The notes: generated by a model not told the origin, from the sequence alone. Shown: positions 13,915 to 64,000, counted from the first letter of the stretch. The stretch is 64,000 bases of DNA from Eisenibacter elegans DSM 3317 (GCF_000430505.1 NZ_AUMD01000021.1:128001-192000); one strand, 5' to 3'. Numbers and translations: made by a program.

Positions 13915-16101
13915 ATGACCAACGCCAAAACTACCCATATACCTGTCGAAACTAACGGCAAGACCCGTACCCAACCCGCCAGCAGCCGCAGCCGAACAAG
14001 TACACTTATCAATAAGAGTAACTACATCAGCCGCGATTTGAGCTGGTTGCAGTTCAACGATCGGGTGCTTGACCAAGCCCGAACACCCTCCCGTACTATC
14101 TTTGAAAGGCTGAAGTTTTTGGCCATTACGGCCTCCAACTTGGACGAGTTTTTTATGATTCGTGTAGGAAGCCTTTACAACTATATCGACTACAGTAAGG
14201 AGCGGGTCGATTATTCGGGGTTGCGCGAGCGGCCATTCAAAAAAATCTTGTTTGAAGCCATTCAAGCCTTTACCAAAACACAACATCAGTGTTTTCAACA
14301 AGAGCTATTGCCCGAATTCAGTAAAAACGGCCTACAAATAGCCAAAGTCAGTGAGCTACGCCCCGAAGAGCAAGCCCAAGTAGCCAATTATTTTATGTAT
14401 ACGCTCTTCCCGATGCTTACCCCGATGGCATATGACAATTATCGCAGCTTCCCGCTGTTGATGAACAAGCTGATGTGTTTTGGGGTCGTTACCAAAGGCA
14501 GCTCCGTAGACAAAGAGGAGGAGCGCCTCTCCTTTGTGCAAATTCCCCAAAATTTGCCGCGTTTTTATGAAATCGACAGGGAAGACACCCTTGTCTTCGT
14601 TCCGATAGAGGAAATCATCCGTACACACATCGACAAGCTCTATCGTAACATCGAAATCTTACAACTCTCGCTCTTCCGCATCACCCGCAACGGCGACATT
14701 ACCCTAGAAGAAAGCGACGACATAGAGCAGGACTTCATAGATGAAATCAAGATTAAGCTCAAAACCCGAAAAACCGGACGTGCCGTCCGGATAGAGGTAG
14801 AGAGAGGCTTCTCCGAGCGCACCATCCGCACATTGCGCAAGCGCTGGGGGTTGGAAGAAGATAATATCTTCGTAACGGATAGCCTGCTTGACTACACAGG
14901 GCTGTTCCAAATAGCCCTACACGATGAGTTCAGAGACCGCATCCCAAGTATCAGTCCTAGTGTGGCTCCGGTGGGGATGAATGAGCCGGATGTAGATATC
15001 TTTGAGCTTATCAAAAAACAGGACTTGCTCTTACATCACCCCTTCAACAGCTTCGAGCCGGTATTGGAGCTGTTAGAAGCCGCCGCCGAAGACGAGGATG
15101 TATTGGCAATCAAAATCACTATCTATCGCCTTTCCAAAAACTCCCGCGTGTCTACAGCCTTGCTCAAGGCCGCTGAAAATGGCAAACACGTATCGGTGTT
15201 GTTTGAGCTAAAGGCTAGGTTTGACGAAGAAAATAATATCCGCGAGGCCGAACGCCTACAAAAAGCCGGCTGCTTTGTGATTTATGGCTTCAATCGCTAT
15301 AAAACACACACCAAGCTGATGCTGATTGTTCGTAAGGAAGACAACCAAGTGGTGCGTTATGTACATATGTCTAGCGGCAACTACAACGAATCTACCGCCC
15401 GACTGTATACTGATATTGGGCTGCTAAGTGCGAGGGAGGGCTATGGGCAAGATATTTCGGAGTTTTTCAATGTCATCACAGGGCATTCCCAGCCTTTGGG
15501 CTACCGCAATCTCATTACATCGCCCAACACGATGCGCGATGCGCTGATAGCGCTCTTGAGGCGCGAAGCCGAAAATGCAGCTAAAGGACTGGCCTGTGGC
15601 GTGGTGATTAAAATCAACTCACTTGAAGACCAGCGCATTATCGACGAGCTGTATTTGGCCTCTCAGGCAGGGGTGCCTATCAAGTTGATTGTTAGGGGAA
15701 TATGTTGCTTGCGTCCACAACGAAAAGGGCTGAGCGAAAACATCGAGGTCATCTCTTTGGTGGGAGATTTGTTGGAACATAGCCGTATTTATTACTTCCA
15801 TAACAACGGCAAACCGCAAGTATATGGAGGGAGTGCCGATGCGATGGTACGCAGCTTTGACCGCCGGATAGAATCGTTGTTCCTGATTACGGATGAGTCT
15901 GTCTTGTCTCAAATCATTACTATCTTAGACATCAACCTTAAGGATAATGTCAATGGCTATGTGATGCAGGAGGATGGCAGCTATGTGCACAAAGTGCCAG
16001 CGGCGGGAGAGGTGTTGGTCAATCTACACGAAGCTTTTTTTGATATGCAGGGTTTGCTCCAACAGCCTACCCAGCTTTTTATGGATAAAAAAACGCGCTA
16101 G
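13915..16101 (+). CDS. ppk: polyphosphate kinase 1
   Basis: 728 aa. N-terminal YISRDLSWLQFNDRVLDQA...ERLKFLAITASNLDEFFMIRV, a central phospholipase-D-like His motif and overall length match PPK1. Confidence 0.9.
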   Translation: MTNAKTTHIPVETNGKTRTQPASSRSRTSTLINKSNYISRDLSWLQFNDRVLDQARTPSRTIFERLKFLAITASNLDEFFMIRVGSLYNYIDYSKERVDYSGLRERPFKKILFEAIQAFTKTQHQCFQQELLPEFSKNGLQIAKVSELRPEEQAQVANYFMYTLFPMLTPMAYDNYRSFPLLMNKLMCFGVVTKGSSVDKEEERLSFVQIPQNLPRFYEIDREDTLVFVPIEEIIRTHIDKLYRNIEILQLSLFRITRNGDITLEESDDIEQDFIDEIKIKLKTRKTGRAVRIEVERGFSERTIRTLRKRWGLEEDNIFVTDSLLDYTGLFQIALHDEFRDRIPSISPSVAPVGMNEPDVDIFELIKKQDLLLHHPFNSFEPVLELLEAAAEDEDVLAIKITIYRLSKNSRVSTALLKAAENGKHVSVLFELKARFDEENNIREAERLQKAGCFVIYGFNRYKTHTKLMLIVRKEDNQVVRYVHMSSGNYNESTARLYTDIGLLSAREGYGQDISEFFNVITGHSQPLGYRNLITSPNTMRDALIALLRREAENAAKGLACGVVIKINSLEDQRIIDELYLASQAGVPIKLIVRGICCLRPQRKGLSENIEVISLVGDLLEHSRIYYFHNNGKPQVYGGSADAMVRSFDRRIESLFLITDESVLSQIITILDINLKDNVNGYVMQEDGSYVHKVPAAGEVLVNLHEAFFDMQGLLQQPTQLFMDKKTR

Positions 16102-16314: not shown

Positions 16315-16716
16315 ATGGTCAATTTATTCAAAACTCGCCAAATCAGGGATGCAATCAATGCTAAGCCCGAAGAAGTTCAGGAGATTATAAACGCTTCCGA
16401 ATATGGTATTTGCATTACCAATGCATCAGGCAACTTCGCCTATGTCAATGACAAATACACCGAGATTTATGGATATAGCCGGGAAGAGTTAGTAGGCCAA
16501 CACTTTTTGATGGTTGTACCTGAGGAATCCAAAGAGCACCTCAATGACTTACACGAGGATTTTATTGCCTCTCAGAGAGAAATATCGCGTAGTTGGGTAG
16601 TGCTCAACAAGGCCGGCAAGCGGATGCGAATCACGGTAGATGCGCGTTTTTCGGATAAGCTGAACAAACAGCCTCACAAAATCACTTTTGTTGAACTGCT
16701 CGAAATACTGGACTAA
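16315..16716 (+). CDS. stand-alone PAS-domain protein
   Basis: 133 aa. GICITNASGNFAYVNDKYTEIYGYSREELVGQHFLMVVPEE is a PAS S-box core. Confidence 0.55.
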   Translation: MVNLFKTRQIRDAINAKPEEVQEIINASEYGICITNASGNFAYVNDKYTEIYGYSREELVGQHFLMVVPEESKEHLNDLHEDFIASQREISRSWVVLNKAGKRMRITVDARFSDKLNKQPHKITFVELLEILD

Positions 16717-22507: not shown

Positions 22508-22514
22508 ATTGTAT

Positions 22515-22922
22515 ATGGAAACCTTATATGAGGATAGTTTTGTATTGATACAACAAGATTTGTCTCAAAACTTGTTGGTAGACACTTGGTCGGGAGATAG
22601 CGAGAGGCTCGACTCGGAGACGTTCAAACAAATTCTCCTAACTTGGAAAGGCTTGATGCTCGAACATCAGGTGGCGTTTGCCCTGACGGATACGCGTCAT
22701 TTCCGCTTGCCAATGACTCCTGAACTGCAAGAGTGGACAATTGAGCACATTACCAAGGAGCTAGCTGCTAGCAGATATTATCGCAAACACGCTTTTTTGA
22801 TGCCCGAAGAATTTATTGCCGGCTTGGCTATCGAGCAATTTACCCAAGACACCAATGCCGCTGCCGGAGATACACACTTTTTTAGCAGTCTAGACAAAGC
22901 CAAAACTTGGTTGCTTGCTTAA
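22515..22922 (+). CDS. hypothetical ~135-aa protein; paralog of the tandem family at 62637-64000
   Basis: The track ORF begins at TTG 22509; the first ATG is 22515. Alignable over its full length with the three C-terminal paralogs. The block ALTDTRHFRL...LQEWTIE corresponds to YMVDSEFTV...LQDWLNTE. Confidence 0.55.
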   Translation: METLYEDSFVLIQQDLSQNLLVDTWSGDSERLDSETFKQILLTWKGLMLEHQVAFALTDTRHFRLPMTPELQEWTIEHITKELAASRYYRKHAFLMPEEFIAGLAIEQFTQDTNAAAGDTHFFSSLDKAKTWLLA

Positions 22923-23026: not shown

Positions 23027-24352
23027 CTAGCCGCCCATCATCTCGCGTAGGTTGGCCTCAAAATCGTCGTCGTCATCATCATCGCCAAAATCATCTTCAT
23101 CAAAGCTATCAGAATCAAAATCATCTTTTCCGAAGGCGCTAGGGTCAAATTCGGGGGGGTTATTGGGAGGCGATGCCATTGCTACGGGCTCATCGGCCAA
23201 GTAATCGCTAAGGTCATCGTCATCCGCTGCATAGGCGTTCTTTTCTTCGAGTGGCATCTGTGCGAACACTGGCGGTGGAGGCGGGGGCGCTGCACTGCTG
23301 CGCTCTACGGTTTCGGTCTGTACGCCGCCTAAATCTTGCAGAGAAGCTTCTACCCGCTCCATAATGGGAGCCATGAGGTCTTGGGCTACGGGGAAGTAAG
23401 GGGTAAGGTCTTGGGCAAACTGATGCAAATGCGAAGTTTGCAGCCAAATGCTGCCCGTTCCGGCCATAGGCACTAAAATGGTTTGAGCTTGGCCATAGAG
23501 AGTCGTCAGGCGGCGCGCACGGCTCAAGTCCATACTGATAGAAGGCTCATAGGCAATCACATTGGCCAAATTGACTTCGATGACATCATCGTTGAGCAGC
23601 TTTTCGACCATTACGCCATTGCCATATACAAAGGCAGTGCCTTGGCCTTGTAGTTTTTCGAGCACAAACCCGTGTTTGTCGTAGGCGTTGAGCGCGACAT
23701 CGAGGTCATCATAATGACTCAAGACCGCCTCTGCCGAGGCGCAAAGAAAGGCTCCGCGCTGAAAAAGCAGGGTTTGCTCGTGTAGCTCTTCGAGGTCAAT
23801 ACGGACAATCCTACCCATTCGTGGAGCAACAAAGGCCACTGTCCGCAGGTACTCGCTGTTGTTTTGAAAGCGTGTGAGATAAAAATACGGCTTTTCTGTA
23901 GGTGGGGGGGGCTGTGATGGCGGCGGGATATCCTCCTCTTCCTCCAATATGTCGTCTTCCTCATCCTCCCAAGGGGGTAGGTCTGGTGGGAGTGTGTCTT
24001 CTGACTCAAACTCTATCTTTCGTCCACGCACCCAGCTTTTGAGCGCCCAGAAGGCTTTTTCAATCAATGGGGGATTATAATCGTCTTCTTCTTCCTTGGG
24101 TGCGGGGGCATCGCTCCAGTCGTCGTCATCGTCCTCCTCCTCAAAAACCGCCTCTGGCGGCGGTGGGGGCGGAGCTTGTTTGGGCATATAATCTGAGAGC
24201 CTAATGGCTTGTGTTTGGATGGCCACCTCTTCATCGAGGTACAATAAAGCTCGGGCATCGCCCTGAAGGGCGCGGCCGGGTTCGAGTTTGATTTCAAGAA
24301 TCTGCTTGAAATACTCATCAATGACTCGATATGTGAGAGAGGTTTGGCTCAT
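23027..24352 (-). CDS. AIM24/DUF124-family protein with long acidic/proline-rich insertions
   Basis: The C-terminal half carries AIM24-like motifs (GAFLCASAEAV..., GTAFVYGNGVMVEKLLNDDVIEVNLANVIAYEPSISMDL, GTGSIWLQTSHL). The N-terminal 50 aa also look AIM24-like, but are separated from the rest by about 110 aa of D/E/P-rich low complexity. A D/E-rich tail is also present. Confidence 0.6.
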   Translation of the reverse strand: MSQTSLTYRVIDEYFKQILEIKLEPGRALQGDARALLYLDEEVAIQTQAIRLSDYMPKQAPPPPPPEAVFEEEDDDDDWSDAPAPKEEEDDYNPPLIEKAFWALKSWVRGRKIEFESEDTLPPDLPPWEDEEDDILEEEEDIPPPSQPPPPTEKPYFYLTRFQNNSEYLRTVAFVAPRMGRIVRIDLEELHEQTLLFQRGAFLCASAEAVLSHYDDLDVALNAYDKHGFVLEKLQGQGTAFVYGNGVMVEKLLNDDVIEVNLANVIAYEPSISMDLSRARRLTTLYGQAQTILVPMAGTGSIWLQTSHLHQFAQDLTPYFPVAQDLMAPIMERVEASLQDLGGVQTETVERSSAAPPPPPPVFAQMPLEEKNAYAADDDDLSDYLADEPVAMASPPNNPPEFDPSAFGKDDFDSDSFDEDDFGDDDDDDDFEANLREMMGG

Positions 24353-24444: not shown

Positions 24445-24490
24445 GAAAAGACATTGCCCCAAGGCTGCTAAGCTGCAACCTTGGGGCAAT
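24445..24490 (-). terminator. rho-independent terminator after the giant gene
   Basis: Perfect 12-bp stem ATTGCCCCAAGG / CCTTGGGGCAAT with a 14-nt loop. On the minus strand it is followed by GTCTTTTC. Confidence 0.55.
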
Positions 24491-24546: not shown

Positions 24547-27500
24547 TTAAAATCCGTCATCTCCGCTTTCGCCTGAGTACAGCGCACGGAACTTGCTCAT
24601 AAATGCATCTTTTCGGTCGCTTCCGGCAGGCTGTAGCGAAAACTGCCCGTCTTTGGCTTTCTTGGTTTGTCGCGCATCAATGTCTTTGTTGAAGGCCTCA
24701 TTAGAAGAGACCGCAAAGAGCACGTTGTTGTCCATCTCGAAGAAGTACCAAGAGTTGGCAGATATTTCGACATATACCGAGAAGCCGTCGCTGCTACCAG
24801 ACCCTTTTCGGATTTCGACTGCACCCGTTACGGGGGTGTTGACGATTTTGTTGCCCACACTGAAGAGCATAAAGTTTCCTTTGCTATAGAAAGTACGGAA
24901 CTCGTCGTTCCAGTGTAGCTGTACTCCGCTGATGTTGAGAGGTGAAATCAGGCTGGGCAACATTTCCATTGGCTGTACTGGGCGGCGTTTTTTCTCGGCA
25001 AAGTAGCGCTTCATCTCTCGGTCGCCGGCGATTTCGGCCAAGTTATGTGTCATAGTACCGGCTTCTTCGATATTGTAAGGGTTTTCGGGCTTTTGTAACA
25101 ATACCTCTTCTACCATCTTACTCACAGAAGTAGGAGGAACAGGGGCTTTTAGGGCGATGAAGCTATCGAATTGGTAGGTTTCCTTTTCGGGATTGTATTT
25201 GCATACGCCCACAGTCTGGAGGTGCGGGGAGTGAATAGAATCTAGGAGGCGGAATGGCCCTTCCATAATCAGTTCACCGGTAATGTCATTGAAGAGCAGT
25301 TCACTGCCTACATAGCTCAGTCGGGCGCGGTAGCTCACCGGAGCCAGCTGGAAAATACCGGTGTTGGGGTTGGCTGTCAATTCTCCGCTAGCCAAGAAGA
25401 CATCCCTATCGGAGTTAGATTCCATTGGCGAGATGAAGGTACTGTATAGCTCATTGGCAGCATTGAAATGCAAGCCGGCAGTTAAGATTTGGCCGGCGGC
25501 TGGGGTTTTCTCACGGAATGGCAGCTGGGTGTCGCCAGAGCTACGTTTGTAAGGAATCCAGCTATTAAATCCGGCTCCACTCTTCAAGTCCATTTTGATG
25601 TACCCATCGAGCGCCAAGTTTTTGTCATTGGCAAACATATACACCTTGCCATAATAGAGAATCCCGGTAGTGATATAGATGGGGGCTTCTTCGCTGACAT
25701 AACCCTGCGAAACGGTGATGCGTCTTTTGCCGTCTAGGGCTGCAAAGGAGGTATAGTTTCCAGAGATTTCATCATCAGGAACAGCATCAGGGTCATCAGG
25801 ATCTACTGGATCATCCGAGCCGTCGGGGTTTTTCTTGTTGTCTTTTTCCCGCTCTTTGGTCGACTTCTTGTCTTCTTTTTCTTGTTCAAATGCGGCTTTT
25901 CCGTCTAAGAAAGCCTGTTTTTTTCTCCCTTTCTTGTCATCGGTTTCGGTATCGTTGAGGGTGAGTACGTTTTCAAACTGTTTTTTCTCGGCCTGTACCT
26001 GGGCTGCGTCTAAGAGTCGGAAGTCATCGAACTTGATGTTGTAGATAGTACTGTCTACCTTGTTGTTGAAGGCATAGGTAGCATTGCCTTCGAAATCAAT
26101 TCGGGAGTTGATTTTGATACGCCCATCAAAGAGGTTGTGGTATTGGTTAAGGGTATCAATGACGAGCTTGGCATTGCGTAGGGTTTCGATATCGGCCTCT
26201 CCTCTTACGACCACCCTGCCCGAATCGGGGAGGATACGCGCATCGGCAGAGGTGATATAGGGAACCCCTTCGATGATAAGTCGTCGTTCTTGGGTGTTGT
26301 AGTGTGCTTCGGAGCCATTGAATCGGACATCACGCCCGTCATACGATTCGCCGCCATACTTGGTAGAGGCAAAGATAGAGGTGCTATCGCCCTGCATATC
26401 AATCATATTGGTGGCTGTATTCCAGCGGGCTTCTTGGATATTGGTTTGGAACTTGGCATAAGGGAAGCTAAAGGCCAGATAGTTGATATTGCGAACCTCT
26501 TCCGAAGGCTGTGAGTAAGCAAATCCTTGGCGTAGACTCATATTGAGGTCTACAAAGTTGCCTTTGAGTAGTTCGGGATTATTGACATAAAACGATTGGT
26601 CGGTACTACGGGGGTCTCGTTTGGCAGAATTGACCTTAAATTCGAGTTGTGTTCCTACTAGGCTATCTATTCCCAACATATAAGGATCCATTCCCATCGC
26701 AATCATCTCAAAATCACTTCTTACGGCACTACCATAGCCATACAAGCCGGTAGATTTGACAATCAGCGTGCCATAGAGTGTCATCATCTCAAAGTTGTCG
26801 GCACCATCATTGCCATAGACTTCAAACAAGCGGCTAGAGTATTCGATTTCGTAGCGGTCTTCGCCCAAGAAACCATCGATATATTCTCGATTGTCAATCA
26901 TCAGACTGTCATCGAGCACAGCCCAAGCCATTTTGGCTCGTTCGCCTATGGCCATCGGGAAAGAGGCCTTTTTGGAGCCTATTTTTTCGGCTCGGTCTAC
27001 CTTAAACTCTACCTCATCAGCGTATACATATTTGGGCAAAAAGAGGTATCGTTTGCCGATGGTATTCTCGACCTTGGTACTGAGGAAAGTAATCAGGCCG
27101 GAAGAGAACATCCCTTCTTTGTTCATCACAATAGGTTCGTTGAAGCGAATATGTGCGCCCTCGACGCGGCTTTCTTCCGGGTATTTGCTCAGAATGTCTT
27201 GATGTAGTTCTTCGACCCTTCCCGGCGAGTTTTGAATCATATCTTGAGGAATGCCTAGGTCGTGGGTGGCAATCCATTCTTTTACGTAACCACGCTCGGG
27301 GTAGAGGTCATAGCCCTCGGGGGGTGGGTGGTGTGTAAAGCCCATTTGGCCGCCAGTGCCGGGCAAGCCAACCAACGTTTCTTTGAAGGGCGGAAAAATA
27401 TTACAGCTCATAATTCCGGGGAAGCGTGGTTCCTTGATGTAGAGGCTGTCTAGTTTTACTTCGGGCATAATGAATTTCACCCGGGTAGAGTCATAAGCGC

Positions 27501-30027
27501 CATCTTGGCGTGTTTCTAGCGCAAAGTTCATAAAGCCACCTCCGGGGATGTTGAGCTTGGGATAGGTGGCAAAAAACTCTCCGGGCATTTGGTCGCTTTC
27601 CCCTTGTTTCAGCCCCGATTTGTTGGTGGGCAGGTTGATTTGCATCGTTCCGGCTTCGTCATAAACTATTTCGGAACCGAAGTACTGCGGCTCAGGCTGT
27701 CTGGTAACGGGGTTGTATACGATGTTGCCGTTTTCGTCTGTAGCCGGGATGATGTTGCCGGTGCTGTCGCGCATAATGAAGAGGATGTCTTCAATTTCGG
27801 GCATATCCAATACAAACTCCTCGTAGTTGAAGGTAAACATCCTTCCTCTGAAGCGCATATCGCCGATTTTGGCTTCGCCTGCCTCCATAAAAATGGTTCG
27901 GTTTGAGAATATCTGTACTTCGTTGTTGGCCGGCACGAGATAAACCCCCAGCTCGTGGCTGATGGGGAATTCTTTGACCCCCCGCACCAACAAGTTGCTC
28001 CCGCCCAGAATCATACTGGCATTGGGAATCCAATTGATGGTTACGGACTCGTTGCCGAGGCTGTCATAAACAGCCTGATTGCCCACACGTACCCGCGACT
28101 GGATGCGTAGGTCGTCATAGTCATAGTTATAATAAATATCGCGTTCGCCCGGGGTCTGGAAGCCCAGCTGTGGTTGGTAAGTAGGGCGACCATTGATGTC
28201 TCCTACTACATTTTGGGCATTGACATCTTTGGCGGTATAATAAAACTTATCCGCATCTACATAATGCACCAGTTTGTAACCGAGGGTGATTTTGTGCCTT
28301 TTGGTCCATTCGTCCGTTTCGGTTTTGGGATTCCAACGCTGGTATTCGTCTTCTTCTATCTCTAGTGCGCCTTTCAGGCGCAAGTCTGTTGCCACACCCA
28401 AAAGGACATTGGGGTCCTGTTTGTAGTCTTCGGCCATCTCCTCCAGATAGAAGGGGTCGTACATACTATAGGAAATCCCCTCTCTGATGAGTTTGCGGGC
28501 ATAATTATGAAAAATCTTGTAAGGGTTGAAATCATAAATACTAGAGGCATAGGTGTATACATCTGGGTCATAGAAATCAAAAGACTCAAAAGTTACGGGC
28601 AGCAAGCTATCGGTGAGGGTAGTCAAGAAAAAATTGAGGCTATCATTGGTCATATCATAGCTGAGCAGGTCTACATCCATCAAAAACTTATGGTCGGTAT
28701 TGATAAAGGGAGTTTCTTGAAAGACACTGTTCTTGTTGCGTATCAGCTCTATGCGCGACTTATCGATATGGTATACCAAGTCTACCGATGTATGGAACAC
28801 CGAGTCTGCCCCACCATAAAAGTAGATGGAGAACTTTGTGTTTTTGGCAGTTACGCGTGTTTGCTCGAAGATAAACTCGCGCCCTCGCACATTGAAGAGT
28901 GGCTCGCCGCCACGCTCTGCGTAAAGTGTCGAGAGGCCGCGCTCACGTGCACCCACACCTTTGATACCCTGTAGGGCAAAGCCCCCTTGGTAGCTTACAT
29001 ATTCTCCTAGGCCAGTGATGCGGACATCTTCGTCTGACTGAAACTTGGGATAATCAGCCACCGTAAGGGTATCTATAATCACCCGTTTGGTTTTACCGTC
29101 TACTTTGATATTTCGGTATACATACTCTTTTTTGCGGTCTTTGGAGATAAAGTCAAAGCTGCCTGTAATCCCCCCGCTAAAATAGCTTCCATTGCTGAGT
29201 TGTGCGTCTTTGCTGTGGATAGCGGCTTTTCCGGCTTCCAGCACAAAATCTCCCAAGGAGCAGGTAATCTGCCCTGTCGAAAGGTTGGGGTACTCGCGTT
29301 TGAAGCCAACTTGTGTTTTGCCCTCTTCGTTTTTATGCTTGGTACTGACATAGAGGTTGGCCCAGTCGAAGCTTCCTCCATTGCCGATAAAGTTATGACT
29401 GAGCATTTTGTAATCGCCAGAAGTACTGGAGACAAAGCTAGAGTCGAAAGGCGACACCAAGGCTAGGTCTACCCGGCTTACCTGCAGTATGGGCTCATCT
29501 TCGTAGCGAATATTGTAAGAGCCTTGCGCAAGGTAGACCTTGTTGTAGGAGCTGTAATAGAGCGCTTGGTGGGCGTAGAAGTGGTAGAGTTGTACAAAAA
29601 ACTCCTCTGTTGTCTTGGTATTGATATTGGTCTGCAACATCGACAAACAAGCATCGAGCAGATTACCCAACTGAGAGCTGTTGAGAATAGACTGCTCGGT
29701 GCCTTCGATTAGGGCTGCATAAAAATGTTTGTATGCACTGTTGAAATCACACTGTTTTTGCAACAACTCATTAGAAATCTGGATGACTTTTTGTTGTGCG
29801 GGCTGTCCCATACCGCTCCATACCTGCCCAAACCGCTCCGACAGGGCGGCACCATCTGTGGCATTGTATTTGACCATCAGTTGACCTACAAGGGCAATGA
29901 ATTTTTCGGTGCTATCAGGAGCGGTTTTCGTATAGCGTTGCGCTTGCAGCGGCGCTACAGTCAGCAGGAGGCTGCCGCAGATGCCCCACAAAAGCATCCA
30001 TAAACGAGTTTTTGAAAACATAGCCAT
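24547..30027 (-). CDS. very large (1826 aa) secreted, probably outer-membrane, protein of unknown function
   Basis: Single uninterrupted ORF with a signal peptide (LLLTVAPLQAQ). The body is beta-rich with many aromatic-alternating segments. There is a K/E/D-rich linker (about aa 1370-1440), and the protein ends in ...DDGF (C-terminal Phe, as in many OM beta-barrels). Identity with SprA, LptD or TamB could not be established from the sequence alone. Confidence 0.7.
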   Translation of the reverse strand: MAMFSKTRLWMLLWGICGSLLLTVAPLQAQRYTKTAPDSTEKFIALVGQLMVKYNATDGAALSERFGQVWSGMGQPAQQKVIQISNELLQKQCDFNSAYKHFYAALIEGTEQSILNSSQLGNLLDACLSMLQTNINTKTTEEFFVQLYHFYAHQALYYSSYNKVYLAQGSYNIRYEDEPILQVSRVDLALVSPFDSSFVSSTSGDYKMLSHNFIGNGGSFDWANLYVSTKHKNEEGKTQVGFKREYPNLSTGQITCSLGDFVLEAGKAAIHSKDAQLSNGSYFSGGITGSFDFISKDRKKEYVYRNIKVDGKTKRVIIDTLTVADYPKFQSDEDVRITGLGEYVSYQGGFALQGIKGVGARERGLSTLYAERGGEPLFNVRGREFIFEQTRVTAKNTKFSIYFYGGADSVFHTSVDLVYHIDKSRIELIRNKNSVFQETPFINTDHKFLMDVDLLSYDMTNDSLNFFLTTLTDSLLPVTFESFDFYDPDVYTYASSIYDFNPYKIFHNYARKLIREGISYSMYDPFYLEEMAEDYKQDPNVLLGVATDLRLKGALEIEEDEYQRWNPKTETDEWTKRHKITLGYKLVHYVDADKFYYTAKDVNAQNVVGDINGRPTYQPQLGFQTPGERDIYYNYDYDDLRIQSRVRVGNQAVYDSLGNESVTINWIPNASMILGGSNLLVRGVKEFPISHELGVYLVPANNEVQIFSNRTIFMEAGEAKIGDMRFRGRMFTFNYEEFVLDMPEIEDILFIMRDSTGNIIPATDENGNIVYNPVTRQPEPQYFGSEIVYDEAGTMQINLPTNKSGLKQGESDQMPGEFFATYPKLNIPGGGFMNFALETRQDGAYDSTRVKFIMPEVKLDSLYIKEPRFPGIMSCNIFPPFKETLVGLPGTGGQMGFTHHPPPEGYDLYPERGYVKEWIATHDLGIPQDMIQNSPGRVEELHQDILSKYPEESRVEGAHIRFNEPIVMNKEGMFSSGLITFLSTKVENTIGKRYLFLPKYVYADEVEFKVDRAEKIGSKKASFPMAIGERAKMAWAVLDDSLMIDNREYIDGFLGEDRYEIEYSSRLFEVYGNDGADNFEMMTLYGTLIVKSTGLYGYGSAVRSDFEMIAMGMDPYMLGIDSLVGTQLEFKVNSAKRDPRSTDQSFYVNNPELLKGNFVDLNMSLRQGFAYSQPSEEVRNINYLAFSFPYAKFQTNIQEARWNTATNMIDMQGDSTSIFASTKYGGESYDGRDVRFNGSEAHYNTQERRLIIEGVPYITSADARILPDSGRVVVRGEADIETLRNAKLVIDTLNQYHNLFDGRIKINSRIDFEGNATYAFNNKVDSTIYNIKFDDFRLLDAAQVQAEKKQFENVLTLNDTETDDKKGRKKQAFLDGKAAFEQEKEDKKSTKEREKDNKKNPDGSDDPVDPDDPDAVPDDEISGNYTSFAALDGKRRITVSQGYVSEEAPIYITTGILYYGKVYMFANDKNLALDGYIKMDLKSGAGFNSWIPYKRSSGDTQLPFREKTPAAGQILTAGLHFNAANELYSTFISPMESNSDRDVFLASGELTANPNTGIFQLAPVSYRARLSYVGSELLFNDITGELIMEGPFRLLDSIHSPHLQTVGVCKYNPEKETYQFDSFIALKAPVPPTSVSKMVEEVLLQKPENPYNIEEAGTMTHNLAEIAGDREMKRYFAEKKRRPVQPMEMLPSLISPLNISGVQLHWNDEFRTFYSKGNFMLFSVGNKIVNTPVTGAVEIRKGSGSSDGFSVYVEISANSWYFFEMDNNVLFAVSSNEAFNKDIDARQTKKAKDGQFSLQPAGSDRKDAFMSKFRALYSGESGDDGF

Positions 30028-62636: not shown

Positions 62637-63056
62637 ATGATTACTTATTCAGACAATGATTTGATGCGCATCGAATATGATGCAACCCTCAAGGCTGTGG
62701 TGTATGCTTGGAAAAAAGGCAACCACGGGATGACCGAAGAACAATACAAAACAGAAATGCGCCGCGCTCTGGCCGCAGTACAGGAGTACAAAGCGCTGAC
62801 GGTCATCGCCTATATGGTCGATTCTGAGTTTACGGTCAAGCCCCAACTACAGGACTGGCTCAATACCGAAGTAATGTACCAACTATTCCCCTATGGCTGT
62901 CGCTATGTGATAGTGGTCTTGAGCCAAGATTTTATTGCCCGTCTTTCGATAGAACAAGTATTTGAAGAAAAAACCGAAAACCGTGTTGGCAATATGTTTG
63001 TAGGAAGTATGGAAGCCGCCCGTGTAGAAGCTGCAAAGTTTCTGCAAGCAGCTTAA
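62637..63056 (+). CDS. hypothetical ~140-aa protein, tandem paralog 1 (putative STAS/SpoIIAA-like fold)
   Basis: MITYSDNDLMRIEYDATLKAVVYAWKKGNHGMTEEQYK...LTVIAYMVDSEFTV...LQDWLN...RYVIVVLSQDFIARLSIEQVF. The two downstream neighbours are 50-65% similar. Confidence 0.6.
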   Translation: MITYSDNDLMRIEYDATLKAVVYAWKKGNHGMTEEQYKTEMRRALAAVQEYKALTVIAYMVDSEFTVKPQLQDWLNTEVMYQLFPYGCRYVIVVLSQDFIARLSIEQVFEEKTENRVGNMFVGSMEAARVEAAKFLQAA

Positions 63057-63086
63057 AACACTACAAATCAACTCACTAGTGTGCTT

Positions 63087-63512
63087 ATGACGATTATAGA
63101 AGAAAGCCAGTATCTACAGATTGTGCATGACTCAAGTATCAAAGCCCTGATATACAGCCTAAAAAAAGGAAACTATGATATGTTTGATGAGGATTACAAA
63201 GCCGGTATTTTGCGTGTATTGGCAGCCTCTCAAGTCCATCGCCCGCTAACTGTCATCGCCAACTCTTATGAGTCGGAGTTTACTGTCAGCATAGAGTTGC
63301 AAGACTGGCTCAACAACGAAGTGGCTGTCAAAATTCCCCCTACAGGAGCGAAACATATGGTCATTGTGCCGAGCAAGGACTTTATTGTTCGCCTTTCGGT
63401 AGAGCAAGCCGTTGACGATTCGGCCAAACCTATTACCATCACGTTTGCTACTTCGCTAGAAGATGCCCGCCGGCAAGCTGCCGATAATCTACAAAAGCAC
63501 TTATTGCCCTAG
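63087..63512 (+). CDS. hypothetical ~140-aa protein, tandem paralog 2
   Basis: The track ORF starts at GTG 63081; the first ATG is 63087 (MTIIEESQYLQIVHD...). Same block structure (LTVIANSYESEFTV...LQDWLNNE...HMVIVPSKDFIVRLSVEQ). Confidence 0.6.
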   Translation: MTIIEESQYLQIVHDSSIKALIYSLKKGNYDMFDEDYKAGILRVLAASQVHRPLTVIANSYESEFTVSIELQDWLNNEVAVKIPPTGAKHMVIVPSKDFIVRLSVEQAVDDSAKPITITFATSLEDARRQAADNLQKHLLP

Positions 63513-63586
63513 AAACAACCGTGTTTTCTGGTGCCCTATATCATATAATCACGATTCTCTCACTACTATCCCCACTATTTCTGCTT

Positions 63587-64000
63587 ATGATTACCTATGC
63601 CGACACCGACTATATGCGTATTGAATTTGACAAAAGCCTCAACGCGATGATATACCGATGGAAATCAGGCAATCACGGGATGAGCGATGAGGAATACAAA
63701 ACCGAAATGCGCCGTTGTATAGAGTGCATCAAGACTTACCGACCTCTGACGGTGATTGCCTATATGGTCGATTCTAACTTCAGCATACACCCAGCGCTAC
63801 AAGACTGGCTCAATAAGGAAATCATTGCTTCGTTATTTCCCAATGGCTGTAGATATGCAATCTTGGTAGAGAGTGCCGATTTTATTGCCCGGCTCTCATT
63901 AGAGCAAGTCTTTGCCGACAAAACCGAGGAGCGCGTCGGCAGTGTATTTGTCAGTACTTTGGAGGAGGCGTATGGGTATGCGCAAAAATTTTTGGGCGAA
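63587..64000 (+). CDS. hypothetical protein, tandem paralog 3 (3' end beyond window)
   Basis: ATG at 63587; the open frame runs to the window edge (138 codons). MITYADTDYMRIEFDKSLNAMIYRWKSGNHGMSDEEYKTEMRR...YMVDSNFSI...LQDWLNKE... is about 70% identical to paralog 1. Confidence 0.6.
   Translation, partial: MITYADTDYMRIEFDKSLNAMIYRWKSGNHGMSDEEYKTEMRRCIECIKTYRPLTVIAYMVDSNFSIHPALQDWLNKEIIASLFPNGCRYAILVESADFIARLSLEQVFADKTEERVGSVFVSTLEEAYGYAQKFLGE

Follow-up and report, generated by a model that had tools for sequence, protein, structure and literature searches.

The 64,000-nucleotide stretch of the Eisenibacter elegans DSM 3317 genome analysed here (the window) encodes a soluble AIM24-fold protein whose domain is split by two acidic, disordered linkers and followed by an acidic, disordered tail. 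The host lineage of the window is the Microscillaceae, within the Cytophagales. The protein belongs to a monophyletic Cytophagales subfamily (mostly Microscillaceae) descended from a compact AIM24 protein of ~260 aa. Each structured element of that ancestor persists in the subfamily (N-terminal strand block, basic amphipathic linker helix, beta core, and C-terminal helices), and the three connectors joining them are expanded into polyanionic, often proline-rich disordered segments. With a probability of roughly 40%, the architecture represents a basic helix tethered on a soluble AIM24 scaffold and masked or spaced by polyanionic disordered arms. No description of an internal triple expansion of disordered acidic sequence in AIM24 was found in the searched literature, and the subfamily is best regarded as a lineage-restricted elaboration of a known fold, not as a new kind of system. 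The features of the window and of the related loci are collected in Table 1.

Table 1. Features of the window, numbered from its first letter, and genes at related loci (prefix L, own numbering).
Feature	Position	Strand	Basis
Split AIM24 family protein, complete ORF, 441 aa + stop	23027..24352	-	ORF call, Pfam, NCBI identity
N-terminal beta-strand block, aa 1-50	24203..24352	-	1yox 5-45 alignment, AF2, subfamily conservation
Acidic linker L1, aa 51-92, net -13	24077..24202	-	Composition, AF2
Basic amphipathic helix island NPPLIEKAFWALKSWVRGRKIEFE, aa 93-116	24005..24076	-	AF2, alignment with compact members
Acidic linker L2, aa 117-154, net -14	23891..24004	-	Composition
Rest of AIM24 domain, aa 155-339	23336..23890	-	Pfam 158-306, 1yox, AF2, Foldseek
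Acidic disordered tail, aa 340-441	23030..23335	-	Composition, AF2
Short predicted C-terminal helix, aa 429-438 (DFEANLREMM)	23039..23068	-	AF2
16-bp perfect G+C-rich hairpin + short T run	24453..24490	-	-31.1 kcal/mol, z = -5.9
1826-aa ORF, signal-peptide-like N-terminus	24547-30027	-	
137-aa ORF, convergent with the AIM24 gene	22509-22922	+	
Paralogs of the 137-aa ORF	62637-63056, 63081-63512, 63521-64000	+	
15-nt tandem array ATCATCATCATCAAA, 3.4 copies	23075-23125		
Polyphosphate kinase 1	13915-16101	+	
Stand-alone PAS-domain protein	16315-16716	+	
Small gene directly upstream of AIM24, related loci	L001:1780-2025, L002:9743-10000, L004:275-472, L005:6796-7071, L010:9774-10004, L011:5804-6004, L013:2022-2192, L014:5752-5979, L017:4001-4237, L018:1898-2110		
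DUF4293 gene (~160 aa, 3-4 hydrophobic segments), directly downstream of split AIM24	L001:3317-3790, L005:8312-8797, L010:11195-11677, L013:4048-4524		

Family membership and predicted fold

The product of the 441-codon frame is 100% identical to the NCBI entry "AIM24 family protein [Eisenibacter elegans]". The Pfam AIM24 profile (PF01987) matches aa 158-306 over profile positions 58-204 of 205, at 80.9 bits (E = 1.3e-22; gathering threshold 25.7 bits). Profile positions 1-57 of the domain are present as well, outside the Pfam match reported. Alignment to 1yox (PA3696; sequence match E = 1.2e-21) falls into two pieces, which pair query residues 3-44 with chain residues 5-45 and query residues 157-311 with chain residues 75-229. 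The N-terminal piece is weak when taken alone (7.8 bits), and the alignment shows the corresponding block to be kept across the subfamily and in compact members. In the NCBIfam collection, the hypothetical equivalog model TIGR00266 scores 48.6 bits, below its curated cut-off of 96.6; on profile score, the protein appears related to this equivalog group without being a member of it.

An AF2 model calculated from a 53-sequence alignment places aa 7-50 and 157-305 in one domain, with pLDDT values of 93-98 over aa 11-50 and of 91-98 over most of aa 151-300. Foldseek comparison of the model with the PDB returns 1yox (E = 7.4e-16, TM-score on target 0.84-0.87) and 1pg6 (E = 2.1e-12, TM-score on target 0.76) and no further significant match. 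The predicted fold is thus the beta-sandwich-repeat fold of 1YOX and 1PG6. The profile score, the 1yox alignment, and the fold matches together bear out the AIM24/DUF124 identity proposed in the initial annotation. That annotation had proposed to map the insertion boundaries against family profiles; the gap between the two 1yox pieces runs from query residue 44 to 157, and the Pfam match begins at aa 158.

Neither a signal peptide nor a transmembrane segment was found in the 441-aa protein, and PADLOC defence models gave no match to it at E <= 0.1. Because the protein departs from the compact single-domain architecture (~220-270 aa), having 441 aa with ~200 aa of non-domain sequence in three blocks, it is classed as an AIM24 variant.

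Anatomy and composition of the split protein

The N-terminal block contains predicted strands at aa 7-13, 16-23, 28-31, 36-39, and 43-50. The first linker, L1, is 38% D+E and 21% P and includes PPPPPP at aa 61-66 and EEEDDDDD at aa 71-78; apart from a short turn at aa 52-54, the AF2 model gives it no regular secondary structure, and pLDDT falls to ~61. The second linker, L2, is 40% D+E and 29% P (with the runs EDEEDD, EEEED, and PPPSQPPPP) and occupies a position at which compact members have 0 residues. The remainder of the domain consists of the beta core (aa 157-305) followed by two C-terminal helices (aa 309-319 and 321-339). Runs in the tail include PPPPPP at aa 356-361 and DDDDDDD at aa 424-430. 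Disorder had been anticipated for the acidic segments, and the AF2 model agrees over most of their length: aa 71-95, 110-140, and 341-428 are modelled at low confidence and, two three-residue turns aside, without regular secondary structure.

The separation of the N-terminal strands (aa 1-50) from the rest of the domain (aa 155-339) by an acidic, proline-rich stretch is confirmed, at ~104 aa. The initial annotation had described this stretch as a single low-complexity insert of ~110 aa. Its acidic and proline-rich character stands, but it is not uniform, for it encloses a conserved basic helix at aa 94-111. Since this ancestral helix lies inside the insert, there are two acidic insertions rather than one. 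An acidic tail is likewise present as described, although at ~100 aa rather than ~90 aa, and it ends in the short predicted helix listed in Table 1. Loosely similar amphipathic C-terminal ends occur in many subfamily members (e.g., LDIDKIVEEL) without being strictly conserved, and some compact AIM24 members end in GxLGGLGNLF. A conserved C-terminal motif was considered on account of the short, amphipathic, acidic helix with which many members terminate, but it is given little weight because it is not universal.

The net charge is -28 over aa 326-441 and -63 over the whole protein, which contains three poly-Pro runs and several D/E runs. Compared with the other non-nested ORFs of the window (48 in all), the protein is the clear outlier in composition: the D+E+P fraction peaks at 0.70 in a 40-aa stretch (median 0.275), and the net charge per residue reaches -0.143, with the next ORF at -0.079. 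Proteome-wide acidity, as in a halophile-type adaptation, was considered and set aside, the other window ORFs not being acidic. The poly-Asp run of the tail is underlain by a 15-nt tandem array, which is consistent with replication slippage as the origin of the low-complexity sequence.

The basic linker helix

The conserved core of the basic helix is PLIEKAFWALKSWVRGRK (aa 94-111), modelled by AF2 as a helix at aa 96-109 with pLDDT ~71. This segment, of the pattern LLEKLWxATKKxI, aligns to GL(F/M)GKL(F/L)xAGKRxLTGES of compact AIM24 proteins, and this alignment shows it to be homologous to their mobile linker helix (GLxGKLxxAGKRxLTGES). In the closest pairs, whose cores are 81-85% identical, helix identity is 83-94% and that of L1, L2, and the tail is 30-62%. 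In more distant pairs, helix conservation is no better than that of the core.

The helix is basic throughout the family, with a mean charge of +3.2 in the split clade versus a comparison mean of +2.3 (Mann-Whitney p = 0.0016), a statistic that is uncorrected for phylogeny and computed on phylogenetically related sequences. When a compact member is modelled by AF2, this helix (aa 58-70) receives pLDDT 62-75 versus 96-98 for the core, and the 1yox chains resolve only 186-209 of 250 residues. Because of these low model values and unresolved residues, the helix is probably mobile throughout the family. Its hydrophobic moment (0.33-0.53) is moderate, comparable to that of known membrane-targeting helices, and not decisive.

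A split acidic clade in the Cytophagales

An exhaustive HMMER search of 1.84 billion representatives gave 1214 matches. About 17 clusters at 50% identity have a full-length, single-stretch match; the remaining matches listed are other AIM24 proteins that match over the core only, most of them compact. A word-indexed search with the full protein returned 3 proteins, low-complexity words swamping the candidates, and a linker-free chimeric query returned one compact relative only. A genome scan added seven further loci of this layout, each from a MAG of the Microscillaceae, Cytophagaceae, or Cytophagales, and the named cluster members are all Microscillaceae/Cytophagales. The initial annotation had proposed to check related genomes for the same insertions, and ~17 clusters and these further loci carry them.

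The layout was measured in 17 members with script-located landmarks (one of them a truncated protein that lacks the tail), and three more match by eye. Its order is N-terminal block, acidic L1 (41-102 aa), basic helix, acidic L2 (24-69 aa), core, and acidic tail (25-114 aa). Net charges across the 17 segmented members range from -4 to -44 in L1, from -5 to -26 in L2, and from -6 to -33 in the tails. In a neighbour-joining tree of 231 conserved columns, the split proteins form a single clade that 49 of 50 bootstraps recover, and the window protein, which has the same layout, lies inside it. The nearest outsiders by distance are the compact protein P0004 and a compact protein of Fulvivirga imtechensis. 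In Fulvivirga the gene order is gltX, small gene, and a 258-aa compact AIM24, and in several split members it is gltX, small gene, and split AIM24; the shared position suggests orthology and one expansion event in a Cytophagales lineage.

The layout is unusual for the family, as the initial annotation had supposed. Most AIM24 matches in the HMMER search are 225-290 aa long, and more than 93% of Pfam AIM24 members consist of the domain alone (PMC6677890). By the two-piece 1yox alignment, the connector that is ~29 residues long in PA3696 measures ~112-115 aa in the window protein; in compact P0004 it is ~34 aa. Across the split clade, the insert site spans 85-191 aa versus ~34 aa in compact members, so the acidic regions are not ordinary family loops.

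The linkers keep their acidity and not their sequence or length, which suggests selection on composition. An unlikely though serious alternative is drift in permissive loops, by which flexible connectors would tolerate slippage-born acidic sequence that is soluble and harmless and serves as a linker only. The wide ranges of linker length fit this alternative, as do linkers that evolve much faster than the core, a proline content that is not conserved among split members (0.01 to 0.34), the 15-nt array beneath the poly-Asp run, and expansion sites that fall where compact proteins are modelled at low confidence or are left unresolved. Yet expansion and acidity affect all three connectors in every member, although the clade is deep and core identity within it is only ~30-40%, linker lengths are stable within subclades (e.g., 59/59/61 and 53/50/50), and no other window protein is so biased. 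Drift alone is not expected to hold the net charge between -35 and -120 in every full-length member analysed.

Genomic context in Eisenibacter elegans

The hairpin in Table 1 follows the stop of the 1826-aa ORF (24547) by 57 nt, ahead of the AIM24 start (24352), and is likely the terminator of the upstream 1826-aa gene. With this hairpin between the giant gene and AIM24, the latter probably has its own promoter, and independent transcription is likely. At the 14 related loci, neither the 137-aa ORF, the M16 peptidase, nor the 1826-aa ORF is found beside AIM24. Synteny with these window neighbours was therefore rejected, and the link to the flanking genes raised in the initial annotation finds support neither in shared neighbours nor in the position of the hairpin.

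The 1826-aa ORF has no Pfam or NCBIfam match and contains a charged Lys/Glu- and Asp/Pro-rich stretch of its own (KKSTKEREKDNKKNPDGSDDPVDPDDPDAVPDDE). Three tandem ORFs at the window end are weak paralogs of the 137-aa ORF (22-24% identity, E = 1e-4 to 6e-4); no Pfam match was found for any of the four, and the label "STAS-like" once attached to the 137-aa neighbour is without Pfam or NCBIfam support. Polyphosphate kinase 1 and a stand-alone PAS-domain protein are encoded 7-9 kb from the AIM24 gene, with no evident link to it.

The neighbourhood also bears on the possibility that the acidic segments are a cation-binding polyanion, in which D/E segments would bind Ca2+, Mg2+, or metals for buffering or sensing and would switch the scaffold. 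TerD binds Ca2+. A protein of this kind would resemble the acidic Ca2+ binders of low affinity and high capacity, and the net charge of -63 and the D/E runs (EEEDDDDD and DDDDDDD, for example) fit such a role. Adjacency of AIM24 genes to ter genes (terD) of the tellurite-resistance cluster in other bacteria is mentioned in a passage of PMC5822837 that cites Anantharaman et al. 2012, and it would favour the same interpretation. However, no ter genes or cation transporters stand next to AIM24 in the window or at the 14 related loci, and no defined Ca2+-binding motif was found in the 441-aa protein; cation binding as the main role is considered improbable.

The small upstream gene and its neighbours in relatives

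At 9 of the 14 related subfamily loci, the gene immediately upstream of AIM24 is a conserved small one (56-91 aa), which often overlaps the AIM24 start by 1-4 nt. The small protein is Lys-rich at its N-terminus and carries the core motif FDIxINSFGEIISNYDVDKINEFLNKNVEDKKLKNR, and no Pfam or PADLOC match to it was found. Because the pair is kept while the outer flanks differ (gltX, ftsY, and others), the small gene and AIM24 move together. The small protein has 546 homologs in the Cytophagales; its gene also occurs without AIM24 in Echinicola and Thermonema and is missing at 4 other subfamily loci. No small gene is adjacent to AIM24 in E. elegans, and tblastn and profile searches found none in the 64-kb window. 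Four related loci carry a DUF4293 gene directly downstream of split AIM24 (Table 1), and no counterpart of it was found in the window.

A small protein with a Lys-rich N-terminus could also serve as a basic partner in a condensate or coacervate, with opposite charge blocks driving phase separation. Binding of basic partners and condensate formation had been suggested in the initial annotation, and the blocky charge pattern of the split protein would suit such a role. The chance of this is slight. A net charge of -63 is far from balance and disfavours self-coacervation, a Lys-rich small protein is also encoded beside the compact, non-acidic Fulvivirga AIM24, and the small gene is not adjacent in E. 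elegans.

Weakest of all, and practically negligible, is the possibility of an artefact. The initial annotation had named a fusion of two ORFs across a frameshift as a refuting case; an assembly error, or an ORF miscalled through non-coding low-complexity DNA, would have the same effect. Alternative reading frames stay open for 75-96 codons in the GA-rich stretches, and the related MAG locus L004 has a frameshift that splits its gene and illustrates what an artefact would look like, but the window gene is one frame without any such break and yields the same protein as NCBI, the order of N-terminal block, L1, helix, L2, core, and tail recurs in independent assemblies and metagenomes (~17 clusters), and the N-terminal block, which cannot fold without the core, is joined to it by AF2 in one domain matching 1yox.

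Proposed mechanism

The favoured reading is that of a basic helix tethered to a soluble AIM24 scaffold. The AIM24 domain would serve as the scaffold in the manner of eukaryotic members that hold membrane-associated complexes together, and the mobile basic helix would be its docking element, binding either a partner or the surface of an anionic membrane. In the split subfamily, this helix would hang on two acidic tethers of ~40-60 aa each. Together with the acidic tail, the tethers may shield the basic helix in cis by electrostatic attraction, until cations or a competing basic partner set it free, and may form a charged spacer or brush around the beta domain. Because strongly acidic tethers would be repelled by an anionic membrane, a protein partner is favoured over lipid. 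In most relatives, the likely partner would be the product of the small upstream gene, a highly charged protein whose translation is often coupled to that of AIM24. The model is also weakened by the only moderate hydrophobic moment of the helix and by the small gene, which is absent from the window and from four other subfamily loci and also occurs without AIM24.

A bolder proposal, for which the odds are long, is that split AIM24 and the small charged protein constitute an undescribed Cytophagales two-component module, in which the helix is switched by its own polyanionic arms. Switching would then respond to cations, ionic strength, or a basic partner. If true, this module would provide the first mechanistic handle on bacterial AIM24 function.

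The split clade can be regarded as a natural experiment that separates indispensable parts (strand block, basic linker helix, and core) from free connectors. The mobile basic helix stands out as the part that probably carries the function, and the small upstream gene supplies a candidate partner. With charge deeply conserved and sequence not, the clade would be a clean case, in bacteria, of selection acting on bulk properties of disordered regions.

Comparison with known AIM24 proteins

According to PMC6677890, experimental work on AIM24 proteins has not extended to any bacterial member. Two compact AIM24/DUF124 proteins of unknown function, PA3696 of Pseudomonas aeruginosa (1YOX) and SpyM3_0169 of Streptococcus pyogenes (1PG6), share the fold of the window protein and the same order of N-terminal block, linker helix, and core. 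They differ in length (243-250 aa), in having a connector of ~29 aa, and in lacking the acidic tail, which adds ~100 aa to the window protein. The nearest compact relatives by distance, from Fulvivirga imtechensis AK7 (L017:4244-5020, 258 aa) and P0004 (259 aa), have a linker helix homologous to that of the window protein but no acidic expansions: L1 is ~15 aa, L2 is 0 aa, and the net charge is about -5 to -7. The Fulvivirga gene occupies the genomic slot of the split members.

Compact AIM24 genes also occur in Patescibacteria (L008:8287-9138 and L009:9743-10615, in Saccharibacteria / Dojkabacteria MAGs), within a neighbourhood conserved between both MAGs. Their products end in a hydrophobic, TM-like segment, so that here the AIM24 domain is attached to a membrane by other means.

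Fungal IDC4 / NCU04645 combines an AIM24 domain with a conserved low-complexity, proline-rich disordered region (a Pro/Gln-rich N-terminus). In contrast to the segments described here, that region is terminal, P/Q-rich, non-acidic, and outside the domain, and it belongs to another lineage and has another origin.

The sole functional precedent is provided by yeast Aim24 and Arabidopsis PAWH1/PAWH2, which have the AIM24 domain in common with the window protein and act as scaffolds that stabilise membrane-associated complexes. Yeast Aim24 is associated with the mitochondrial inner membrane and contributes to the stability of MICOS and of respiratory supercomplexes, and plant PAWH1/2 bind EBS7 in the Hrd1 (ERAD) complex via the AIM24 region. 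These eukaryotic proteins differ from the split protein in possessing a mitochondrial presequence or C-terminal TM helices and in lacking internal acidic insertions, and functional homology between them and the window protein is assumed.
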